From IMG/VR virus record IMGVR_UViG_3300042905_001626, positions 1-50,243 of that record: a stretch of 50,243 bases of DNA. One strand, given 5' to 3'. The notes beneath the pieces were generated by a model, which saw nothing but the letters and a program-made list of their open reading frames with translations, did not search any database and was not told the origin of the DNA. The DNA comes from a virus (taxonomy: Duplodnaviria; Caudoviricetes). Every line of letters starts with the position of its first letter. Position 1 is the stretch's first letter. The translations under genes were made by a program, and so were the position numbers. This document shows positions 10,900 to 44,300 of the stretch, in pieces.

Positions 10900-11694
10900 A
10901 TGCAACTAGAATCAGTTTACAAACTTGGCAGGGACCTTCGCACCGCTGCCCGCACCATGTCCGATGATGAAGCAAGGTTCCTTGTTGATTACTACTACAT
11001 TGCCCAAGAAGATCGTAAGCGCAGCACCAATCAAGTCCGTGCATTGGATCAATCACAAGAGCCGAATGGCGTGATCAACTGGCTTGCTGATCAAACAGGT
11101 AGCCTTGAGAGCGAGATCAAGAAGGCACTAGATTCCTATACCGAGAACCACCCCATGGGCGCGTGGATGCGTCAGATCTACGGCATTGGCCCTGTTATTT
11201 CTGCCGGTCTGTTAGCGCACATCGACATTACCAAAGCGCCTACGGTTGGTCACATCTGGCGTTATGCTGGCTTAGATCCCACAAGCAAATGGGAGAAAGG
11301 ACAGAAGCGCCCATGGAATGCAGGACTGAAATCACTGTGCTGGAAGGCTGGCCAGTCATTCATGAAGTTCAGCAACAGGGAAGAGTGCTACTACGGCCAC
11401 GTGTACAAAGAACGTAAGGCCTATGAAATTGCACGCAATGATCGTGGCGATAACAAAGATCTAGCCGAGCAGTTGAAAGAGAAGGTTGGCAAGACCACGG
11501 ATGCCTACAAACATCTGTCCAGTGGCGTGCTGCCACCCGGTCAGATCGATGCACGGGCAAGACGTTATGCTGTTAAATTATTCCTTTCACACCTGCATGG
11601 CGCATGGTATGAAACGCATTTTGGAACGAAGCCACCATTACCCTATCCGATAGCACACTTGGGTCATGCACACTTCATTCCTTCACCTGTTTAA
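10900..11694 (+). CDS. tasA: TasA-like protein: Nop-domain, IS110-related RNA-binding protein with no nuclease domain
   Basis: Helical N-terminus plus IYGIGPVISAGLLAHIDI...GHIWRYAGLDP (IS110 Tnp/Nop-like motif). No RuvC/DEDD or HNH domain and no SSG serine motif. Its stop codon overlaps the start of a 36-nt-period array. Confidence 0.85.
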   Translation: MQLESVYKLGRDLRTAARTMSDDEARFLVDYYYIAQEDRKRSTNQVRALDQSQEPNGVINWLADQTGSLESEIKKALDSYTENHPMGAWMRQIYGIGPVISAGLLAHIDITKAPTVGHIWRYAGLDPTSKWEKGQKRPWNAGLKSLCWKAGQSFMKFSNREECYYGHVYKERKAYEIARNDRGDNKDLAEQLKEKVGKTTDAYKHLSSGVLPPGQIDARARRYAVKLFLSHLHGAWYETHFGTKPPLPYPIAHLGHAHFIPSPV

Positions 11695-19110: not shown

Positions 19111-20022
19111 ATGGCAGCAGAGTTACCAGAGGCAGCAGTCAGGGCAATAGGTAAAGGCATACCAGCAGACAAGGTGCTGCTACCAGGGTTAAACCTTACG
19201 CCCCAGGAAAAAGCATTTGTCCGGGAGATAGCAGAGGGAGCGACTAAGCGCGATGCATACATTACGGCGTATGAGCCCAAAGGAAAGTCACGGAGTACGA
19301 CAACGTCAGCCTGGCGCGTGGCAGAGCGTGAGAATGTGAAGCAAGCCATCGCGGTGCAAGAGGGGATCCAGCGGTTGAGGTATTCGCAGAACCCCCTTCA
19401 GATAAGGGAATTCGTGGTCGATTCGCTCCAGCATTTAGCACGGACCGCCAAGCGTGACGCGGACCGGCTCGCGGCTCTCAAGATGCTAGGCCAGCTTGCG
19501 GACGTTCAAGCCTTCGAGACTAAGTCAGTGGTCGAGCACCGCAGTGGCAATGATACGCGCCAGCGGTTGGCAGACAAGCTAAAGCGGTTGACGATCGACG
19601 TTGACGCACGCCAGGCTAGTGATGGGGAGGGGGAGGAGGACCCCACCCTAGGGGGGGAGGGCCAAACAGGCCGGGTGCCTGGGGGCGGCGCTAGGTCTAA
19701 TAATCCACACAAACAATCCGCAGAAAATTTAAATCCACACGAACAATTTCCCAACTCTACCGATGACCAAGAGGGTACCCCCTACGAAAGTTCTAATATC
19801 ACGCCACGTGGCGTAATTACAGGGGAAGAGGCCCCCTATGAAGAGGAAGTGGGTTCCCATACGGGGGTAGGTAAAAAAAAGAAGGAGAGGCCTATATGGG
19901 AGGATCCGAAGAGATGGTATGCGGAGACGATGGGGGAGGTGCCGAAGATTGAGTGGGCACCGAGGGAGGATGCTAGGGAGGAGGTACAGAAGAGGTTGAA
20001 AGATGACGAAGGCGGAGGCTAA
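19111..20022 (+). CDS. terS: Terminase small subunit with long low-complexity C-terminal extension
   Basis: LTPQEKAFVREIAEG...DAYITAY...RLAALKMLGQ pattern; lies upstream of terL. Confidence 0.75.
   Translation: MAAELPEAAVRAIGKGIPADKVLLPGLNLTPQEKAFVREIAEGATKRDAYITAYEPKGKSRSTTTSAWRVAERENVKQAIAVQEGIQRLRYSQNPLQIREFVVDSLQHLARTAKRDADRLAALKMLGQLADVQAFETKSVVEHRSGNDTRQRLADKLKRLTIDVDARQASDGEGEEDPTLGGEGQTGRVPGGGARSNNPHKQSAENLNPHEQFPNSTDDQEGTPYESSNITPRGVITGEEAPYEEEVGSHTGVGKKKKERPIWEDPKRWYAETMGEVPKIEWAPREDAREEVQKRLKDDEGGG
19796..19819. repeat. Palindrome, copy 3 (in terS)
   Basis: ATATCACGCCACGTGGCGTAATTA. Confidence 0.85.
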
Positions 20023-20221
20023 GGTATTTTTGGCGGTGAAGACTTGGTGGGAGCTATATCATTTTTCGCCGACGTATGACGATATACGGTTTGTGTTATT
20101 GCAGGAGAGTAAGAGTAACGTGCATAGGCTTGTAAGGAGTTTATGTAAACAGGGGTATTTGAAGCGGATACCTGGGAAGTCCAGGAGTATTAGGGTGATT
20201 AAGAAGAAAGATGGATCTTAG
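20003..20221 (+). CDS. LexA DNA-binding-domain-like winged-HTH protein
   Basis: FSPTYDDI...SKSNVHRLVRSLCKQGYLKRIPGKSRSIRV. Confidence 0.8.
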   Translation: MTKAEAKVFLAVKTWWELYHFSPTYDDIRFVLLQESKSNVHRLVRSLCKQGYLKRIPGKSRSIRVIKKKDGS

Positions 20222-22727
20222 GGCGTTAGCTAAAGCGGCGGCAGGGAAACTTCATTTATTGACGAGTGAAGAGCAGGAGCTATTGCTTAGGGAGTTAGAA
20301 GAATTAGAGAAGGAGGAAGAGAAGAATAAGGCGCAGCATGAGTTCATGGGGTTTGTGAAACAAATGTGGCCGGGGTTTATACCGGGACGGCACCATGAAA
20401 TTGTGGCTAGGGCGTTTGAGGATGTGGTGAATGGGAAGAATAAGCGGTTGATTATTAACATGGCACCGAGGCACACGAAGTCTGAGTTTGCTTCTTATTT
20501 GCTGCCCGCTTGGTTCTTGGGGAAGTATCCTGGAAAGAAGGTGATTCAGACATCACATACAGCGGAATTGGCCGTTGGGTTTGGTAGGAAGGTAAGGAAC
20601 CTTATTGATTCAGATACCTATCACAAGGTATTTGATGATGTGAAGCTAAAAGCTGATAACAAGAGTGCTGGGCGATGGGCCACGAACAAGGGCGGTGAGT
20701 ATTTTTCGATTGGTGTGGGCGGATCGGTGACAGGTAAGGGTGCTGATCTATTGATTATTGATGATCCACATTCTGAACAAGAAGCTAAGTTGGCTGCTCA
20801 TAAGCCTGATGTGTTTGATTCAGTGTATGACTGGTATACGTCAGGTCCACGTCAGCGTCTTCAGCCGGGTGGGGCCATTATAATAGTTATGACAAGATGG
20901 TCGCTCAGAGACCTGACCGGGCAAGTGATCAAGGCAAGTCAGACAAGGGGCGGTGATGAGTGGGAGGTGATAGAACTTCCAGCGATATTGCCATCTGGCC
21001 GACCGATGTGGCCGGAGTTTTGGAAGTTAGAAGAATTACTGGCGCTGAAAGATGAATTGCCGGTAGGTAAATGGAATGCTCAGTATCAGCAACAGCCGAC
21101 TGCTGAAGAAGGTGCGATTGTAAAGCGGGAATGGTGGAAGATTTGGAAGCATGACAGGCCACCGGCATGTGATTTTGTGATTCAGAGCTGGGATACGGCG
21201 TTTTTAAAGCACAACCGGGCGGATTTTTCGGCTTGTACGACCTGGGGGGTGTGGACAAATGAGGACGGAGAGACCAATATCATCCTTTTAGACGCCTTTA
21301 AGGACCGCTATGAGTTTCCAGAACTTAAGCAAAAGGCTTATGAGACCTACACCGAATGGCAACCGGACGTATTTTTGGTTGAAGCAAAGGCAGCCGGAAG
21401 CCCGTTGGTCTTTGAACTCCGCCGGATGGGTATACCAGTCAGTGAATACAGCCCCACCAAAGGTAACGACAAGATCGTAAGGATGAATGCGGTTGCAGAT
21501 TTGTTTGCATCAGGACGAATCTGGGCGCCAGAACGTAAGTTTGCTGATGAAGTGATCGAGGAAGTAGCGGCTTTTCCTGCCGGTGAACATGATGACCTTT
21601 GCCTTGTGGCGGACACCATGATTCTTATGGCGGACGGCATGGAAAAGCGCATCGATCAAGTTAAAGACGGTGATTTGGTTGCCACACCGGATGGACCAAG
21701 GATGGTTTTAGCTGCTGGATGTACGGGATATAAAGAAACCATGACGCTTAAAGTCGGTCGATATGCTATCCAAGGAACGGGTAATCACCCGGTTGCAACC
21801 AAAAGGGGCTGGGTATGCATACAGGATATTGATCCTAATGATGCTATACTTGTCGAATCAAGACAGGAGCAGTCATCATGGTATTTGCAAGTCAAGGCAT
21901 TACGTCAGAGGTTGTCGTATTTAATGGCCGCAGGTACAGGCGCTATCCAAACGCTAAGCAAGCCACACACCGCAAGTATTTTTCAAGGTCTGGGGCGCTA
22001 TTACACAGGGATATTTGGGAGTTTCACAACGGGACCATACCGGCAGGACATCAAATACACCACAAGAATGGCGATCCATCAGACAATCGATTGGAAAACT
22101 TGGAGTGCGTCAGCGTATCTGATCACAAAGAACGGCACAAAGAAGAAATTATCCAGCGAGGGCAAAGCGAACAATCTATTAAGCACCTTGAAGCTATTCG
22201 ACGCTTGGCGGCTGTTTGGCACGCAAGCCCAGAGGGTATTGAATGGCACAAAAAACATGCTGCAAACTCTATTGCAAAACGTGATCCCAAATGGAGAGAC
22301 AAAAAGCCTTGGCTCACGGTTGCTTGTGAGGTATGCAAAAAGATTTTTGAAACAAAAAACACTCGCAAGTCTATTTGCTCAACAGCATGCACATCAAAAA
22401 AACGAAACGATAAGCAGCGAGAAGAGCAGCTTTCAAAGCCATACACATGCTTGCAGTGCAACAAAATTTATTTCACCGTCCAAAAACGAAAAAAGTTTTG
22501 TGGCCGTGTGTGCGGGCAAGCCTTCAATCGAGCAAGCAGGAAGGCAAGCCGTTTATAACTTGGCCGTTGAAGGTTCGCATTGTTATTTTGCCAACAAAGT
22601 TCTTGTTCATAACTGCGATTCCATGACACAGGCCCTACTTAGGTTTAGGCAAGGCGGGTTCTTGAGCCTACAATCCGACGACGAAGACCGTGAGTCTATT
22701 TACCGCCGCAAGGTTGCATATTATTAG
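20211..22727 (+). CDS. terL: Terminase large subunit with intein (838-aa precursor, about 500 aa spliced)
   Basis: MAPRHTKS Walker A, LLIIDDPH Walker B, QSWDTA and HDDL/CDS nuclease motifs. Confidence 0.95.
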   Translation: MDLRALAKAAAGKLHLLTSEEQELLLRELEELEKEEEKNKAQHEFMGFVKQMWPGFIPGRHHEIVARAFEDVVNGKNKRLIINMAPRHTKSEFASYLLPAWFLGKYPGKKVIQTSHTAELAVGFGRKVRNLIDSDTYHKVFDDVKLKADNKSAGRWATNKGGEYFSIGVGGSVTGKGADLLIIDDPHSEQEAKLAAHKPDVFDSVYDWYTSGPRQRLQPGGAIIIVMTRWSLRDLTGQVIKASQTRGGDEWEVIELPAILPSGRPMWPEFWKLEELLALKDELPVGKWNAQYQQQPTAEEGAIVKREWWKIWKHDRPPACDFVIQSWDTAFLKHNRADFSACTTWGVWTNEDGETNIILLDAFKDRYEFPELKQKAYETYTEWQPDVFLVEAKAAGSPLVFELRRMGIPVSEYSPTKGNDKIVRMNAVADLFASGRIWAPERKFADEVIEEVAAFPAGEHDDLCLVADTMILMADGMEKRIDQVKDGDLVATPDGPRMVLAAGCTGYKETMTLKVGRYAIQGTGNHPVATKRGWVCIQDIDPNDAILVESRQEQSSWYLQVKALRQRLSYLMAAGTGAIQTLSKPHTASIFQGLGRYYTGIFGSFTTGPYRQDIKYTTRMAIHQTIDWKTWSASAYLITKNGTKKKLSSEGKANNLLSTLKLFDAWRLFGTQAQRVLNGTKNMLQTLLQNVIPNGETKSLGSRLLVRYAKRFLKQKTLASLFAQQHAHQKNETISSEKSSFQSHTHACSATKFISPSKNEKSFVAVCAGKPSIEQAGRQAVYNLAVEGSHCYFANKVLVHNCDSMTQALLRFRQGGFLSLQSDDEDRESIYRRKVAYY
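21600..22613 (+). mobile_element. Intein in TerL (residues 464-801, 338 aa)
   Basis: Starts CLVADTMILMADG (block A); TGNHPV (block B); VYNLAVEGSHCYFANKVLVHN (blocks F/G); +1 Cys. Removal restores HDDL|CDSMTQAL. Confidence 0.95.
21878..22558 (+). CDS. HNH homing endonuclease with Zn-finger repeats, nested out of frame within the intein
   Basis: LHRDIWEFHNGTIPAGHQIHHKNGDPSDNRLENLECVSVSDHKERH; CEVC...CSTAC and CLQC...CGRVC; AGGAG RBS at 21865-21869. Confidence 0.9.
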   Translation: MVFASQGITSEVVVFNGRRYRRYPNAKQATHRKYFSRSGALLHRDIWEFHNGTIPAGHQIHHKNGDPSDNRLENLECVSVSDHKERHKEEIIQRGQSEQSIKHLEAIRRLAAVWHASPEGIEWHKKHAANSIAKRDPKWRDKKPWLTVACEVCKKIFETKNTRKSICSTACTSKKRNDKQREEQLSKPYTCLQCNKIYFTVQKRKKFCGRVCGQAFNRASRKASRL

Positions 22728-22735
22728 GAGCCCTT

Positions 22736-25138
22736 ATGGCTATTGAGCCTGCACTCTACCCAGCACCACTTGGCCTTGATGCCGCCATGGAAGAGCCCAT
22801 GGACGTGGAAATTGAAATCGAAGAGCCAGAGATTATTTCATCAGAAGGCGTTGAGATCACACTTGAGTTAGAGCGAGATCAGCCAGAAGATCATGATGCA
22901 AACCTTGCTGAGTACATCGATGACAGGGACTTGGCGACGATTGCTTCGGATTTACTAGAGGATTTTGAGACGGATAAGTCTTCTAGGAAGGAATGGGTAG
23001 AGACCTATGCAGATGGCTTGAAGCTTTTAGGTTTGAAATACGAAGAGCGAACAGAGCCATGGCCAGGGGCGTGCGGTGTGTTTTATCCATTGCTATCTGA
23101 AGCGGCAGTTAGGTTCCAAGCAGAAAGCATTATGGAGACGTTTCCTGCTTCCGGCCCGGTGAAGACACAGATTGTTGGTAGTCTTACCAAGGAGAAGGAA
23201 GATGCAGCCGAGCGTGTCAAAGATGACATGAATTATCGGTTGACAGAAGAAATGCCAGAGTACAGGCCAGAGCATGAGAAGATGCTTTGGTCCCTGGCAT
23301 TAGCAGGATCAGCATTTAAGAAGGTGTACTACGACCCGTCATTAGGCCGGCCGGTATCCATGTTCATACCTGCTGAAGATATCGTGGTGCCATTTGGCGC
23401 AAGTGATTTGAGAAGCTCACCGCGAATCACACACATCATGCGTAAGACACCTAATGAGGTGAAGAAGCTTCAGCACGCAGGATTCTGGCGGGATGTTGAT
23501 CTTGGCGAGCCATCAGTTGCGTTAAGTGATGTAGAAAAACGCAAGGCCGAAGAAGAAGGTATGACAGCAACGATGGATGACCGGTACAGGATACTGGAGA
23601 TCCATGCTGAATTAGATATACCGGGTTTTGAAGATACGGACAAAGACGGCCCCACGGGTATTGCATTACCGTATGTCGTTACGATTGATGAGGGTACCAA
23701 TAAAGTATTGGCTATTCGCAGAAATTGGTATCAAGAAGATCCATTAAAACTTAAGCGAATGCATTTTGTTCATTATCCATATATTCCAGGATTTGGATTT
23801 TATGGATTCGGATTAATTCATTTAGTTGGTGCATTTGCTAAATCAGGTACATCATTAATTCGCCAATTAGTTGACGCAGGAACATTATCTAATTTACCGG
23901 GCGGATTAAAATCACGTGGATTAAGAGTTAAAGGCGATGACACGCCAATTGCACCGGGTGAATTCAGAGATGTAGACGTTCCATCCGGTTCAATTAGAGA
24001 TAATATTTTGCCGCTTCCTTATAAAGAACCGAGCCAAGTATTATTTGAATTATTAAAAACAATTGTTGCAGAAGGTAGACGATTTGCTGCAACAGCCGAT
24101 ATGCAAATTTCTGATTTATCGGCAAATACACCGGTCGGGACAACGCTTGCTGTATTAGAGCGCACGTTAAAAGTTATGTCAGCAGTTCAGGCGCGTTTGC
24201 ATTATTCAATGCGCCAGGAATTTAAATTACTTGCTGCAATTATTCGTGACTACACACCGACCGAATACAGCTATGACGTAGATGCTGCAACGGGCAGGAT
24301 GGTTAAGCAGGCCGATTACGATACGGTCGATGTCATACCGGTATCGGATCCCAATGCAACAACACTTGCTCAAAGGGTTACGCAATACCAGGCTGTACTT
24401 CAGTTAGCCGCTCAGTCGCCACAGATCTATGACATGCCAGAGCTTCATAAGCGCATGTTGGAAGTTCTGGGCATTAAGAATATTGACAAGCTCATACCCG
24501 CTGCCAAAGCAGAGCAGCCACGGGATCCGGTATCGGAGAACATGGCTATTCTTAATATGCAGCCGGTTAAGGCATTTATCTATCAGGACCATGAGGCTCA
24601 CCTCGCAGTCCATATGGCAGCCATTCAAGATCCGATGTTGCGCCAACAGGTTCAGCAAAACCCGATGGGCGGTCAGATGATGGCAGCAGCCATGGCTCAC
24701 ATTAACGAGCACTTGGCGTTCTTGTACCGCAAACAGCTTGAACAGCAAATTGGCGTACCGCTTCCTCCGCCTGATACACCGTTACCTGAAGACTTCGAGG
24801 TTGAGATCTCTAGGTTGGCAGCACGTGGTGCTCAACAATTATTGCAACAGCACACGGCAGAGGCGCAGCAGCAACAGGCACAGCAGCAGATGCAGGATCC
24901 GTTGGTGCAGATGCAGCAGGCGGAGTTGGCATTGAAGCAAGCCAAGGAGCAGCGTGAGGCTCAGAAGGACCAGGCTGATATTGCACTGAAAGCACAGGCT
25001 CAACAAGACAAGGTTCGCCTTGAAGAAGAGCGCATTAGAAGTATGCAGCAGATTGCTGAACAGAATATTGCGGCCAAGATGATTGATAAGGCGGCAGATA
25101 TTCAGCGTGACAAGTATTTAGTTCGTAAGGAGCGGTGA
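22736..25138 (+). CDS. Portal protein
   Basis: 800 aa directly after terL; Q-rich C-terminal coiled coil like P22-type portals. Confidence 0.85.
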   Translation: MAIEPALYPAPLGLDAAMEEPMDVEIEIEEPEIISSEGVEITLELERDQPEDHDANLAEYIDDRDLATIASDLLEDFETDKSSRKEWVETYADGLKLLGLKYEERTEPWPGACGVFYPLLSEAAVRFQAESIMETFPASGPVKTQIVGSLTKEKEDAAERVKDDMNYRLTEEMPEYRPEHEKMLWSLALAGSAFKKVYYDPSLGRPVSMFIPAEDIVVPFGASDLRSSPRITHIMRKTPNEVKKLQHAGFWRDVDLGEPSVALSDVEKRKAEEEGMTATMDDRYRILEIHAELDIPGFEDTDKDGPTGIALPYVVTIDEGTNKVLAIRRNWYQEDPLKLKRMHFVHYPYIPGFGFYGFGLIHLVGAFAKSGTSLIRQLVDAGTLSNLPGGLKSRGLRVKGDDTPIAPGEFRDVDVPSGSIRDNILPLPYKEPSQVLFELLKTIVAEGRRFAATADMQISDLSANTPVGTTLAVLERTLKVMSAVQARLHYSMRQEFKLLAAIIRDYTPTEYSYDVDAATGRMVKQADYDTVDVIPVSDPNATTLAQRVTQYQAVLQLAAQSPQIYDMPELHKRMLEVLGIKNIDKLIPAAKAEQPRDPVSENMAILNMQPVKAFIYQDHEAHLAVHMAAIQDPMLRQQVQQNPMGGQMMAAAMAHINEHLAFLYRKQLEQQIGVPLPPPDTPLPEDFEVEISRLAARGAQQLLQQHTAEAQQQQAQQQMQDPLVQMQQAELALKQAKEQREAQKDQADIALKAQAQQDKVRLEEERIRSMQQIAEQNIAAKMIDKAADIQRDKYLVRKER

Positions 25139-25326
25139 TGGATTTTTCAGAAGCCGTTTCACTGGAAATAAACAAGCAGATCCGCTATGCGGAGGAACAG
25201 CTTGCACAAGGAAGTATGAAGTCCTTTGAGGACTACAAGTTCGTCTGCGGTCAGATTCAAGGTCTCCTGATCGCAAGACGCATAAACGAAGACCTTGCCA
25301 ATCGTATGAAGGACCATGATGACTGA
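25135..25326 (+). CDS. Hypothetical head-module protein
   Basis: Coupled ORF; Y...CGQIQGL pattern. Confidence 0.7.
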   Translation: MMDFSEAVSLEINKQIRYAEEQLAQGSMKSFEDYKFVCGQIQGLLIARRINEDLANRMKDHDD

Positions 25327-25690
25327 TTTATCTGAGGTATCTCAGCAGGAAGAAACAGCAACACAATTACCAAATCCTACGGGTTACAGGATGTTGTGTG
25401 CGCTGCCAGAAGTAGAGGACAAGTTTTCCAACGGCATTTTGAAGCCTGATGCGTTGGCAAAGCTTGAGGAGTTCAGCACGGTTGTTTTGTTTGTTATCAA
25501 ACAAGGACCCGATTGCTACAAAGATCAGTCAAAGTTTCCAACAGGCCCATGGTGTAAAGAGGGCGACTTTGTTTTGGTACGGGCGTATTCCGGTACGCGA
25601 TTCAAAATCCACGGACGAGAGTTCCGCCTTATCAACGATGACACGGTAGAAGGTGTTGTTGAAGATCCACGCGGTTATAGCCGCGCATAA
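25316..25690 (+). CDS. GroES/Cpn10-like co-chaperonin
   Basis: PTGYRML...GIL...GPDCY...KEGDFVL...YSGTRFKIHGREFRLINDDTVEGVV. Confidence 0.85.
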   Translation: MMTDLSEVSQQEETATQLPNPTGYRMLCALPEVEDKFSNGILKPDALAKLEEFSTVVLFVIKQGPDCYKDQSKFPTGPWCKEGDFVLVRAYSGTRFKIHGREFRLINDDTVEGVVEDPRGYSRA

Positions 25691-28743: not shown

Positions 28744-28769
28744 TCACTGTGTCAAACACAGGAGATCAT

Positions 28770-29372
28770 ATGGACACTACAAACTTACCTAAAACACGCC
28801 AAGAAGCTATGGCAACTGGCGCTAAGTATTACTTCACAGGAGAGCCCTGCAAGCATGGCCACATAGCGCCACGCAAAACAAAAGGCTCATGCGTTGACTG
28901 CCTCAAGGTTGAATGGGAAAAATCAAACGTTACTCGCGCTGATTACTATCGTGAGTACAACAAATCAGACGCCGGCCAGAAAGCAAAGCGCAAATACTAC
29001 GAGGCGAATAAGGATGCTGTGATTGCTAAAGCTGCAAATAGGTCAACAGAAGAAAGGCGCAAGGCAAGAAACAAACATAAAAAATCCAATCCAGAGTTAT
29101 ACAAAGAATTGGTAAATATGCGTAGGCGTAGGTTTAGGCAAGCCACACCTAAATGGCTTACTGAAAAAGATCGCATGGAGATACGTTTGAAATACCGGTT
29201 AGCCTTAGAAATGACCAAAGCAACCGGAGTTAAATACGCCGTAGATCACGAGATACCGCTATTTGGTGAAAACGTATGCGGCTTGCATGTGCCATGGAAT
29301 CTACGTGTCTTGACGCAAGAGGAAAACCTGCGTAAATCCAATAAGCTCATTGACACCCACCCCACAAACTGA
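28770..29372 (+). CDS. Free-standing HNH endonuclease
   Basis: YFTGEPCKHGH...CVDC N-terminus; VDHEIPL.GENVCGLHVPWNL...EN..KSN; AGGAG RBS before ATG 28770. Confidence 0.88.
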   Translation: MDTTNLPKTRQEAMATGAKYYFTGEPCKHGHIAPRKTKGSCVDCLKVEWEKSNVTRADYYREYNKSDAGQKAKRKYYEANKDAVIAKAANRSTEERRKARNKHKKSNPELYKELVNMRRRRFRQATPKWLTEKDRMEIRLKYRLALEMTKATGVKYAVDHEIPLFGENVCGLHVPWNLRVLTQEENLRKSNKLIDTHPTN

Positions 29373-43247: not shown

Positions 43248-43836
43248 TCTGTTTCCCACAGCGGTAGGTTTTGCCGATCTCGGTCGCCCGTTAAGCGATG
43301 AGGAGTTGTTCTTCATCCGTGAGCTTGAGACCAGACCGAATATGGGTAACACTACTAGCACTGATAACTTTGTACTTCGTAGCCCTGTGCTGACGAACCT
43401 AAGATCGTTCATTGAGGATGCTGTCTCGGAATACTTCAAGTCCACTGTCAACCCAAAGCACAACGTATCCTTGCGCGTTACGCAAAGCTGGTGCAATTAC
43501 TCAGAGCAAGGTCAGTACCACCACAAGCACGCACACCCTAATTCGTATATCTCAGGCGTGTTTTATGTGCAGACCAATCCTGATGACAGGATTTATTTCT
43601 ACAAAGACGGCTGGCAACAGATCAAGTTTCCGCCAGATCAGTGGAATCCTTATAACTCGGAATCATGGTGGTTTGAGGCTTACGCCGGAAGATTGATTTT
43701 ATTTCCATCATCGCTTACGCACATGGTTCCAACAGTGCAAGGCGAAGATGTACGCATTTCATTGAGTTTCAACACATTTCCCATTGGCACTGTTGGCGAG
43801 GAAATGGATTTAACTGGATTGAAACTGGAGGCGTGA
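43228..43836 (+). CDS. 2OG-Fe(II) oxygenase-like protein (TIGR02466-like)
   Basis: LFPT...SWCN...HHKHAHPNSYISGVFY...LILFPSSLTHMV...RISLSFN. Confidence 0.88.
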   Translation: MKMQLHNLFPTAVGFADLGRPLSDEELFFIRELETRPNMGNTTSTDNFVLRSPVLTNLRSFIEDAVSEYFKSTVNPKHNVSLRVTQSWCNYSEQGQYHHKHAHPNSYISGVFYVQTNPDDRIYFYKDGWQQIKFPPDQWNPYNSESWWFEAYAGRLILFPSSLTHMVPTVQGEDVRISLSFNTFPIGTVGEEMDLTGLKLEA

Positions 43837-44300
43837 TGGTTACTCAAGAGCGTCTTAAGGAATTGTTTGAGTACCGCGACGGATTTCTGTACGCCAAGCA
43901 AGGTTACCAACCAAAGTTCACGCCAATCACAAACCATCATCGATACATACGAATGAAAGTTGATGGCAAGGTTTATCCTTTGCACAGACTGATTTTTTTA
44001 TATCACCACGGATACCTGCCAAAAATAACAGACCACGCCAACAACGACCGTTCGGACAATAGGATAGAAAATCTAAGAGAGGTAACGCAAAGTCAAAATT
44101 GTTTAAATCGACGCGTTCATGCAAACAACAAAACCGGCATGAAAAATGTGTATTTTGACAAAGCTTATAAAAAATGGAGTGTGCAAATAACCGTTAATCA
44201 AAAACGCAAGTTGATAGGTTATTTTGATGACATTGAACTTGCTGAATTGGTTGCCATCGAAGCAAGAAACAAGTTTCACGGAACATTTGCAAGGAGTTGA
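43833..44300 (+). CDS. HNH endonuclease with AP2-like DNA-binding domain
   Basis: HRLIFLYHHG..P..TDHANNDRSDNRIENLRE...N..NR...NKTGMKNVYF...W..QI...IGYFD. Confidence 0.9.
   Translation: MMVTQERLKELFEYRDGFLYAKQGYQPKFTPITNHHRYIRMKVDGKVYPLHRLIFLYHHGYLPKITDHANNDRSDNRIENLREVTQSQNCLNRRVHANNKTGMKNVYFDKAYKKWSVQITVNQKRKLIGYFDDIELAELVAIEARNKFHGTFARS

Follow-up and report, generated by a model that had tools for sequence, protein, structure and literature searches.

The nested HNH gene at the terminase locus

The virus record IMGVR_UViG_3300042905_001626 (Duplodnaviria; Caudoviricetes), a linear record of 50,243 bases that is about 80% complete and is analyzed here over its whole length (the window), carries a gene for the large terminase subunit (terL) that is interrupted by a contiguous intein, and within this intein the same strand holds a complete HNH endonuclease gene in another reading frame. 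The parts of the locus, with model confidence given as pLDDT (predicted local distance difference test) values, are as follows:

20211-22727, + strand: terL precursor, 838 amino acids (aa) including the intein (phrog_38, E 5e-98; Terminase_6C)
20211-21599, + strand: N-extein, whose last residues are the HDDL motif within the RNase H-like nuclease domain
21600-22613, + strand: contiguous intein, 338 aa, with Cys1, block-B TGNH and a terminal His-Asn (PF14890, AlphaFold2 model, Foldseek)
21600-21860, + strand: N-terminal splicing region of the Hint domain (Hint-N), about residues 1-87 (pLDDT 96-98 over residues 1-80)
21861-22523, + strand: intein-frame insert, about 220 aa, an off-frame reading of the HNH gene with no detectable domain
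21865-21869, + strand: Shine-Dalgarno (SD) sequence AGGAG, 8 nt upstream of the HNH ATG
21878-22558, + strand: gene for the nested HNH endonuclease (226 aa), read at -1 (= +2) with respect to terL
22524-22613, + strand: C-terminal blocks F and G of the Hint domain (Hint-C), overlapped by the HNH 3′ end and stop (pLDDT 96-98, residues 311-339)
22614-22616, + strand: Cys+1 codon, which is Val in the empty alleles examined
22614-22727, + strand: C-extein, 37 aa, with the conserved Asp-Ser of the nuclease motif

An earlier sequence-only reading of this stretch had described a terminase intein with complete splicing blocks, no endonuclease in its own frame, and a separate HNH gene with two Zn-finger repeats in a shifted frame, and each of these features was recovered. 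The intein bears the sequence marks of class 1 (C1, TGNH, HN, and C+1) and matches Intein_splicing (PF14890) with an E-value of 1.3e-9. In an AlphaFold2 model built on 81 aligned inteins, both intein ends reach the high pLDDT values listed above, as in a Hint fold, and Foldseek aligns the model to the solved gp41-1, DnaX, DnaB, and RecA inteins (E ~1e-5, best 1.6e-5). Removal of the intein through the predicted splicing would leave a TerL of 500 aa. We presume a catalytic role for the Asp flanking the insertion site from the terminase motifs; a PDB sequence search with an empty TerL returned no match. The insert between the splicing blocks has no PHROG match in the intein frame and a pLDDT of 42-64 over residues 91-300, and is predicted to be unfolded. 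In a canonical endonuclease-bearing intein the nuclease is read in the Hint frame, whereas the HNH here is read in the -1 frame. Since 21600-22613 contains no stop, the element is also distinct from the split inteins of fractured genes, and it instead shows a contiguous intein open reading frame (ORF) with a complete nuclease ORF between its splicing blocks.

The nested ORF matches HNH_3 (PF13392) over residues 41-83 with an E-value of 1.3e-18, and all invariant residues of the family (H43, H61, H62, N70, N74, and H83) are kept. The protein also has a conserved WH..EG..WH helix and two four-cysteine repeats (C150/153/167/171 and C191/194/208/212), and by sequence it combines an intact core, conserved His and Asn residues, and a C-terminal DNA-binding extension in the manner of I-HmuI. 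I-HmuI (1u3e) is the sole PDB sequence relative of the family profile (E 3.3e-5), with the DH/HH and Asn positions lining up. EndoVII is absent from the matches of the nested gene, Pfam giving HNH_3 only and PHROGs HNH only. The AlphaFold2 model of the HNH has a mean pLDDT of 90; it is a point against the assignment that Foldseek found nothing for this model at E<=0.001, I-HmuI coming first at E 0.25. The AGGAG and the TAA stop, which falls inside the Tyr-Asn codons of intein block F, were both located where the sequence-only reading had placed them.

Dual coding and selection in the overlap

The double open frame, also part of the earlier reading, exceeds chance. When the HNH was recoded synonymously, the intein frame stayed free of stops in 0.5% of 20,000 trials (mean 4.3 stops), and in the reverse recoding, with the intein kept, the HNH frame was stop-free in 0 of 20,000; the double open frame is therefore unlikely to have arisen by chance. 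Ordinary genes of the window have 10.8 stops per 226 codons in the equivalent companion frame, as compared with 17.1 for the other offset, and this lower number of stops probably favors the -1 offset.

Recent change falls unevenly on the two frames. Eight differences separate the window from its relative L002 in the overlap; seven of them are synonymous when read as HNH, and seven are non-synonymous when read as intein. Over nine pairs, one for each 70% cluster having a pair at 80-99.5% nucleotide identity, the differences number 101, 57, and 238 at the three HNH codon positions, and the pooled ratio of non-synonymous to synonymous differences (pN/pS) amounts to 0.17 for the HNH frame as compared with 1.24 for the intein frame. 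The latter value reflects, as would be expected, the constraint acting on the HNH frame and is not a sign of positive selection. Selection on the overlap thus maintains the HNH protein and keeps the intein frame free of stops. That the intein-frame insert forms a real domain was rejected on the basis of this ratio, the lack of a PHROG match, and the low pLDDT, in agreement with the proposal of the sequence-only reading that an off-frame peptide is tolerated inside the intein.

A family of nested elements at one target

Stretches matching the HNH profile number 521 among viral, 54 among genome, and 544 among metagenome sequences. From these searches the best 80, 53, and 80 loci, respectively, entered the analysis, a redundant sample that leans to close relatives. 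At 196 of 247 HNH loci, Hint-N and Hint-C lie in one stop-free frame with the offset seen in the window, and the 176 of these with refinable ends form 103 clusters at 90%, 85 at 70%, and 40 at 50% HNH identity. All 103 representatives have C1 and the terminal Asn, followed at +1 by Cys (98), Ser (4, one of these calls, L012, being a misplaced end), or Thr (1). Of 44 N-exteins, chosen for diversity from 82 representatives of testable length, 42 match TerL PHROGs. The extein after the intein spans 15-97 residues in refined representatives (one contig ends at 3), and the HNH stop varies in position from 19 to 94 nt upstream of the intein end.

Across the family the insertion site is an HDDxxD[AS]-type motif, which by sequence is the last nuclease motif of TerL. 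It is entered in several registers (the arrow marks the insertion point): DDx↓CD (36), DDxVDx↓C (20), D/N-H↓CxD (20), Hx↓C (7), DD↓C (6), DDxVD↓C (4), and other (10). Four isolated-phage records, those of Tetrasphaera TJE1, Acinetobacter Highwayman, Clostridium phiCDHM19, and Rhodobacteraceae LS06, contain a nested match under a plain TerL annotation. Because the nested gene is unannotated in these records, many TerL inteins taken as decayed may be intact mobile elements.

The same HNH family also occurs in other arrangements. The split layout is present in L020, L192, L194, L207, L172, and L208, and probably in L015; the Hint-N stop lies before or near the HNH start, and Hint-C overlaps the HNH 3′ end. 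Among loci without an intein, 22 of 34 have the HNH directly 3′ of the terL ORF (tblastn; redundant set), as in Pseudomonas phage PAE1, where it sits between terL and the portal gene, and three of seven intein-less loci without a tblastn match (L180, L191, and L200) show a terL-like tail by inspection. No in-frame fused long form turned up in 243 candidates (397-2000 aa, E<=1e-8), a result that is weak evidence for the absence of such forms. One contig with Ns, L257 (33-749), has an HNH in frame with a Hint-C end and terL tail; it may represent a step toward an in-frame form but is not relied on.

A quick HNH tree with 123 rows requires the nested label to change 14 times, and well-supported branches force at least 5 of these changes. 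Within one group of 37 nested rows (97% support), five free-standing rows are also placed. By this sequence tree, the nested, split, and free-standing states have interconverted more than once. As the states interleave and the tree is unrooted, it does not settle which way the changes ran, and escapees may be among the free-standing forms. The sequence-only reading had an HNH gene invading a mini-intein; the composite dual-coding element stands, while the tree, with its interleaved states, gives no support to a single invasion.

Individual loci add to this range. In L210 (2214-3105, a Vampirovibrio metagenome-assembled genome, MAG) a contiguous intein carries the same HNH family at the other frame offset, which suggests an independent nesting event. 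The elements of L299 (Clostridium phage phiCD119) and L295 (phiCDHM19) are near-identical; in the former, a single intein-frame stop falls in the Hint-N region and the annotation gives split ORFs, and the latter is contiguous. In L167 (2432-3330, a Spirosoma MAG), a free-standing HNH lies after terL, and beyond it the terL 3′ end motif appears a second time. In L186 (2100-3300, Limosilactobacillus coleohominis), the terL stop lies inside the motif (ENDDTLD), followed by the HNH and then a terL-like tail; an intron at the same site is possibly present, though for a group I intron there was no Rfam match.

Empty alleles and mobility

Of 55 terL relatives, 52 reach the insertion site, and 50 of these are empty, so that the intein is an in-frame insertion in a host gene with intein-less alleles. 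Val occupies the Cys+1 position in all 50; the two filled relatives are the same contigs as L001 and L002. The closest comparison is the empty allele L026, in which terL is followed directly by the portal gene. Its N-extein protein is 99% identical to that of the window, and the last 657 nt of the N-extein are 97.7% identical, while the Cys+1 codon differs at all 3 nt and the next 111 nt hold just 2 differences. In the extein tree, the window pairs with empty L026 and filled L082 pairs with empty L028, and a single clade of the three close filled alleles is rejected (approximately unbiased test, p 1.6e-84). The window and L082 elements share the site at 67% (HNH) and 53% (Hint-N) identity. The element is thus patchily distributed among close terL relatives, as is typical of homing endonucleases. 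Judged from these alleles, the pattern fits homing with co-conversion of the +1 codon: the near-identical empty alleles suggest homing, and the Cys+1 codon probably travels with the element. A point to be set against this reading is that recombination or loss could also give a patchy distribution.

Cys at the +1 position also occurs in 101 intein-less viral stretches, as compared with an estimated 3,800 with Val. The search pattern admitted Phe, and 99 of the 101 have Cys after Phe (HDDFCDS) and 2 after Leu; no downstream HNH of this family was found among them (73 of the 101 had >=700 nt). Since Cys occurs in intein-less stretches, the spliced junction is a natural sequence. The same survey indicates that Cys is tolerated there and gives no support to these residues being scars of intein loss. 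Two other loci, L087 and L160, have an intein-less terL with Cys at intein positions of relatives (HDDLVD-C and HDDY-C) and a free-standing HNH after terL; their HNHs fall among nested ones on the tree, and scars of intein loss are possible in these two.

Two further observations concern these alleles. L026 has a different intein, absent from the window, in the Walker A region of terL (L026, 1986-3017); this ATPase-domain intein starts with Ala, ends in His-Asn before Thr+1, and by eye contains LAGLIDADG-like motifs. A contig of another study (X4) has 30 differences from the window over 20800-23233, and among the differences listed most fall within the N-extein and only a single one within the intein; the contrast between 20800-21600 and 21600-22613 hints at recent exchange.

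Predicted expression signals of the nested gene

The conserved N-terminal motif of the HNH was found in 84 of the 103 representatives, and 79 of the 84 have an ATG no more than 30 codons before the motif. The 75 representatives with a unique ATG have a mean SD pairing energy of -5.9 kcal vs. -2.5 at 807 internal ATGs (p 2e-18). The base following the ATG is A in 0 of 75 nested genes vs. 9 of 17 non-nested genes; an A here would create TGA in the intein frame.

A sigma70-like promoter score peaks 45 to 16 nt upstream of the ATG, with a mean of 11.8 in 62 representatives of the 70% clusters compared with 6.4-8.5 in other bins and 9.5 in the adjacent bin. Scores >=13 are reached by 35% of loci in the peak bin and by 0-3% in all but the adjacent bin. 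The score lies above the mean of synonymous intein recodings in 58 of 62 loci (p<=0.05 in 36), a comparison made without a mini-intein control. In the family, the last part of Hint block B supplies the codons, Leu-Asp and Asp-x-Ile, that hold the -35 and -10. In nine loci the -10 is at -12 or -14 from the ATG, a leaderless spacing, and SD pairing there is 0 to -4.3, as opposed to an average of -6.5 in the other 41 loci (p 3e-5); by their sequences, these SD-less members appear leaderless, an example being Tetrasphaera phage TJE1 with its -10 at -12. Where the promoter is further upstream (n=39), the energy needed to open the region around the start is 9.6 kcal in a long transcript and 4.5 kcal in a short one that begins at the predicted promoter start, against 7.5 and 6.4 at control positions (n=195). 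On this basis, occlusion of the HNH start is predicted for the long terL mRNA. Among non-nested relatives, for which the scoring covered 17 of 25 rows, 14 of 16 scored rows have a promoter score >=11. Since most free-standing and split relatives score as well, the promoter signal looks like the nuclease gene's own.

In the window the corresponding candidates are as follows:

TG 21842-43 and hexamer 21845-50, + strand: predicted extended -10, in block-B-end codons at the position of the family-wide peak, with a predicted transcript 5′ end near 21857
21838-21880, + strand: predicted RNA hairpin over the SD and start codon in the read-through terL mRNA

Several points weigh against self-directed expression of the nested gene through these signals. 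The promoter weights were our own ad hoc choice, and as the loci are related, the p-values overstate their independence. The window copy has no -35 match, its promoter has p=0.15 against recoding and is absent from the consensus-scan list, its hairpin has a z of -1.27 with 23 of 200 shuffles folding equally well, and the difference in opening cost between the long and short transcripts is just 2.7 kcal. By these measures, the expression signals are statistically supported for the family and weak in the window copy. Operator-like similarity between target and promoter, of the kind involved in I-TevI autorepression, reached 12/20 nt at best, this comparison being without a control.

A probable bipartite mobile intein and its alternatives

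By its sequence marks, those of a class 1 intein and an I-HmuI-like HNH, the insert would work like a bipartite mobile intein. There is strong support for dual coding in this terminase insert, and we consider it likely that a self-splicing intein here hosts a -1-frame HNH gene that is expressed from its own signals and drives homing into empty terL alleles. Translation of the terL mRNA would yield the 838-aa precursor, as the intact blocks and predicted fold imply. The Hint halves would fold around a disordered loop of ~220 aa and join the exteins into a TerL of 500 aa that has Cys at its junction. A short transcript would come from a sigma70-like promoter within the codons that end block B, for which the family statistics argue and which is extended to the window copy. 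On this transcript the SD, or a leaderless ATG in SD-less members, would start the HNH; a hairpin may occlude this start in the long terL mRNA, as for T4 I-TevI. The HNH would then nick or cut intein-less terL near HDDL↓VDS, and repair would copy in the intein together with the Cys codon.

Beyond the window, we give slightly better than even chances to a broader history. An old HNH family targeting the last terminase catalytic motif would have moved repeatedly between free-standing, split, and contiguous out-of-frame states, and in the contiguous state the block-B codons would have been rewritten as a sigma70 promoter, an SD or leaderless start, and an occluding hairpin; bringing its own +1 Cys would allow the element several registers. 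If so, one stretch of DNA serves as splicing-domain protein, promoter, RNA switch, and nuclease start, and overlapping self-expressing inteins are a common unannotated class in environmental phages and no rarity.

Other explanations assign the nested gene a different role or origin. HK97 gp74-type packaging HNH proteins are short. A nested HNH domesticated as a terminase packaging cofactor of this type, with a functional link to terL, would account for a family that is nearly always in or beside terL, and the purifying selection is compatible with either role; the idea has been raised for the brucellaphage gene (PMC4422536). A cofactor should be present with all cognate terminase alleles, but it is absent beside the terL of L026 despite the 99% identical N-extein protein, with terL running straight to the portal gene, and from the other empty relatives; in addition, the HNH is I-HmuI-like with a long C-terminal Cys-repeat tail, unlike the gp74 type. 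We regard domestication as quite improbable. Similarly improbable is a recently inactive passenger nuclease in a vertically inherited intein, with empty alleles arising by loss or recombination. The divergence between the window and L082 elements at a shared site does indicate an old element, and the relative phiCD119 has a stop in its intein frame, yet the invariant HNH residues are all present, recent differences are largely silent in the HNH frame, and an exact excision would retain Cys, whereas the closest empty alleles have Val.

The two remaining alternatives concern how the HNH frame is reached. The usual direction of programmed frameshifts is -1, which is also the frame of the HNH relative to terL, so that its production by -1 ribosomal frameshifting or re-initiation from terL, in place of its own start, has to be considered. 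No slippery heptamer of the searched pattern (XXX-AAA/TTT-N) is present in 21600-21900, by which a -1 programmed frameshift was rejected; the HNH frame has stops at 21836 and 21839, 39 nt before the ATG; and across the family an ATG lies close to the N-terminal motif, with enriched SD and promoter signals. We therefore hold this route to be very improbable. Two compensating assembly frameshifts that moved an in-frame endonuclease out of frame, an error against which the sequence-only reading had advised a check, have practically no likelihood. Two other IMG/VR contigs match the window at 98.4-98.5% with zero gaps, contigs of four runs from four other studies (X4, X5, X9, and X13) cover the element with no indel listed, and the stretch or part of it is present in 20 of 24 listed sequencing runs, three of which are possible sources. 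RNA runs matched only 4-7% of its sequence words. The gap-free contigs and the recurrence of the layout in 196 loci rule out such errors, and the layout also recurs in the four isolated-phage records and the HNH has its own SD, ATG, and stop.

Comparison with known systems

The sequence-only reading could name no precedent for this arrangement, but two are in print, and the architecture itself is not new. All annotated brucellaphages carry an intein-encoded HNH gene out of frame within terL (PMC4422536, 2015), a layout confirmed for brucellaphage Tb in GenBank (JN939331, ORF7/ORF8). Like the window, brucellaphages Tb and Pr have a contiguous TerL intein and a complete same-strand HNH (228 aa) in the other frame. 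However, the Tb intein is inserted in the ATPase domain just before Walker B, its HNH is in the +1 frame, and its Cys repeats precede a C-terminal HNH core, whereas the window intein is in the nuclease domain and its HNH is in the -1 frame with an N-terminal HNH_3 core. The two HNH proteins match by BLASTP at E 0.013 through the Cys repeats only, and the window element has none of the three brucellaphage traits (ATPase site, +1 frame, C-terminal core). In actinobacteriophages, non-canonical inteins with a frame-3 EndoVII-like gene have been described and the same invasion model as in the sequence-only reading proposed (bioRxiv 10.1101/2025.01.02.630785). The nuclease of those inteins is EndoVII-like as opposed to the I-HmuI-like HNH_3 of the window family, and the available sections of the preprint contain no promoter, SD, or two-frame selection analysis. 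What is added here is a large family, its insertion in the nuclease domain, the variety of states that share one target, and a set of predicted expression signals.

Other systems share single aspects. In fractured genes, a free-standing endonuclease with its own hairpin and promoter lies between Hint-N and Hint-C (PMC2677866, 2009); the nuclease 3′ end overlaps Hint-C, the same layout as in six or seven of the HNH relatives above. The fractured-gene intein is in two ORFs with GIY-YIG or Vsr-like nucleases, while the intein frame of the window stays open. In the ShiLan domain of phage methylases, an out-of-frame HNH insert for which leaderless translation has been proposed (PMC11855218, 2025), an HNH gene is likewise hidden in the other frame of a stop-free insert, but there is no splicing domain and the host gene is dispensable, in contrast to an intein in the essential terminase. 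The predicted promoter and hairpin of the family resemble the arrangement in T4 I-TevI, segB, and mobE, which have an internal promoter and an RBS-sequestering hairpin at the ribosome-binding site (RBS; PMC2988022). Genes of the I-HmuI and I-TevI type are found within group I introns or in intergenic positions, with T4 late promoters, whereas the predicted signals of the window family are sigma70-like and must also encode Hint residues. Mycobacteriophage TerL inteins all map to the ATPase domain (PMC5050341). A literature search that covered few subscription journals found no paper on the nuclease-domain family or on a promoter in Hint codons.

Both the expression and the frequency of out-of-frame endonucleases are left open by the 2025 papers, and the family gives testable predictions on the promoter and start of each member, the leaderless subset, and the RNA switch. 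The series of free-standing, split, and contiguous forms at one target bears on how inteins gained endonucleases, and the overlap is a clean model for the evolution of overlapping genes in which one frame is constrained and the other only avoids stops.

Neighboring and other genes of the window

The window has the gene order terS, terL, portal, major head, and its terminase is flanked by the following genes:

19111-20022, + strand: terminase small subunit gene (phrog_51, E 2.3e-6)
22736-25138, + strand: portal gene (phrog_1216, E 2.6e-32)

Elsewhere, the window contains a second, free-standing HNH gene (43833-44300), an ORF resembling endonuclease VII immediately downstream of the major head gene (28749-29372), and a transposase-like ORF (10900-11694). 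A GroES-like co-chaperonin gene lies in the head module (25316-25690; phrog_3188, E 2e-10).

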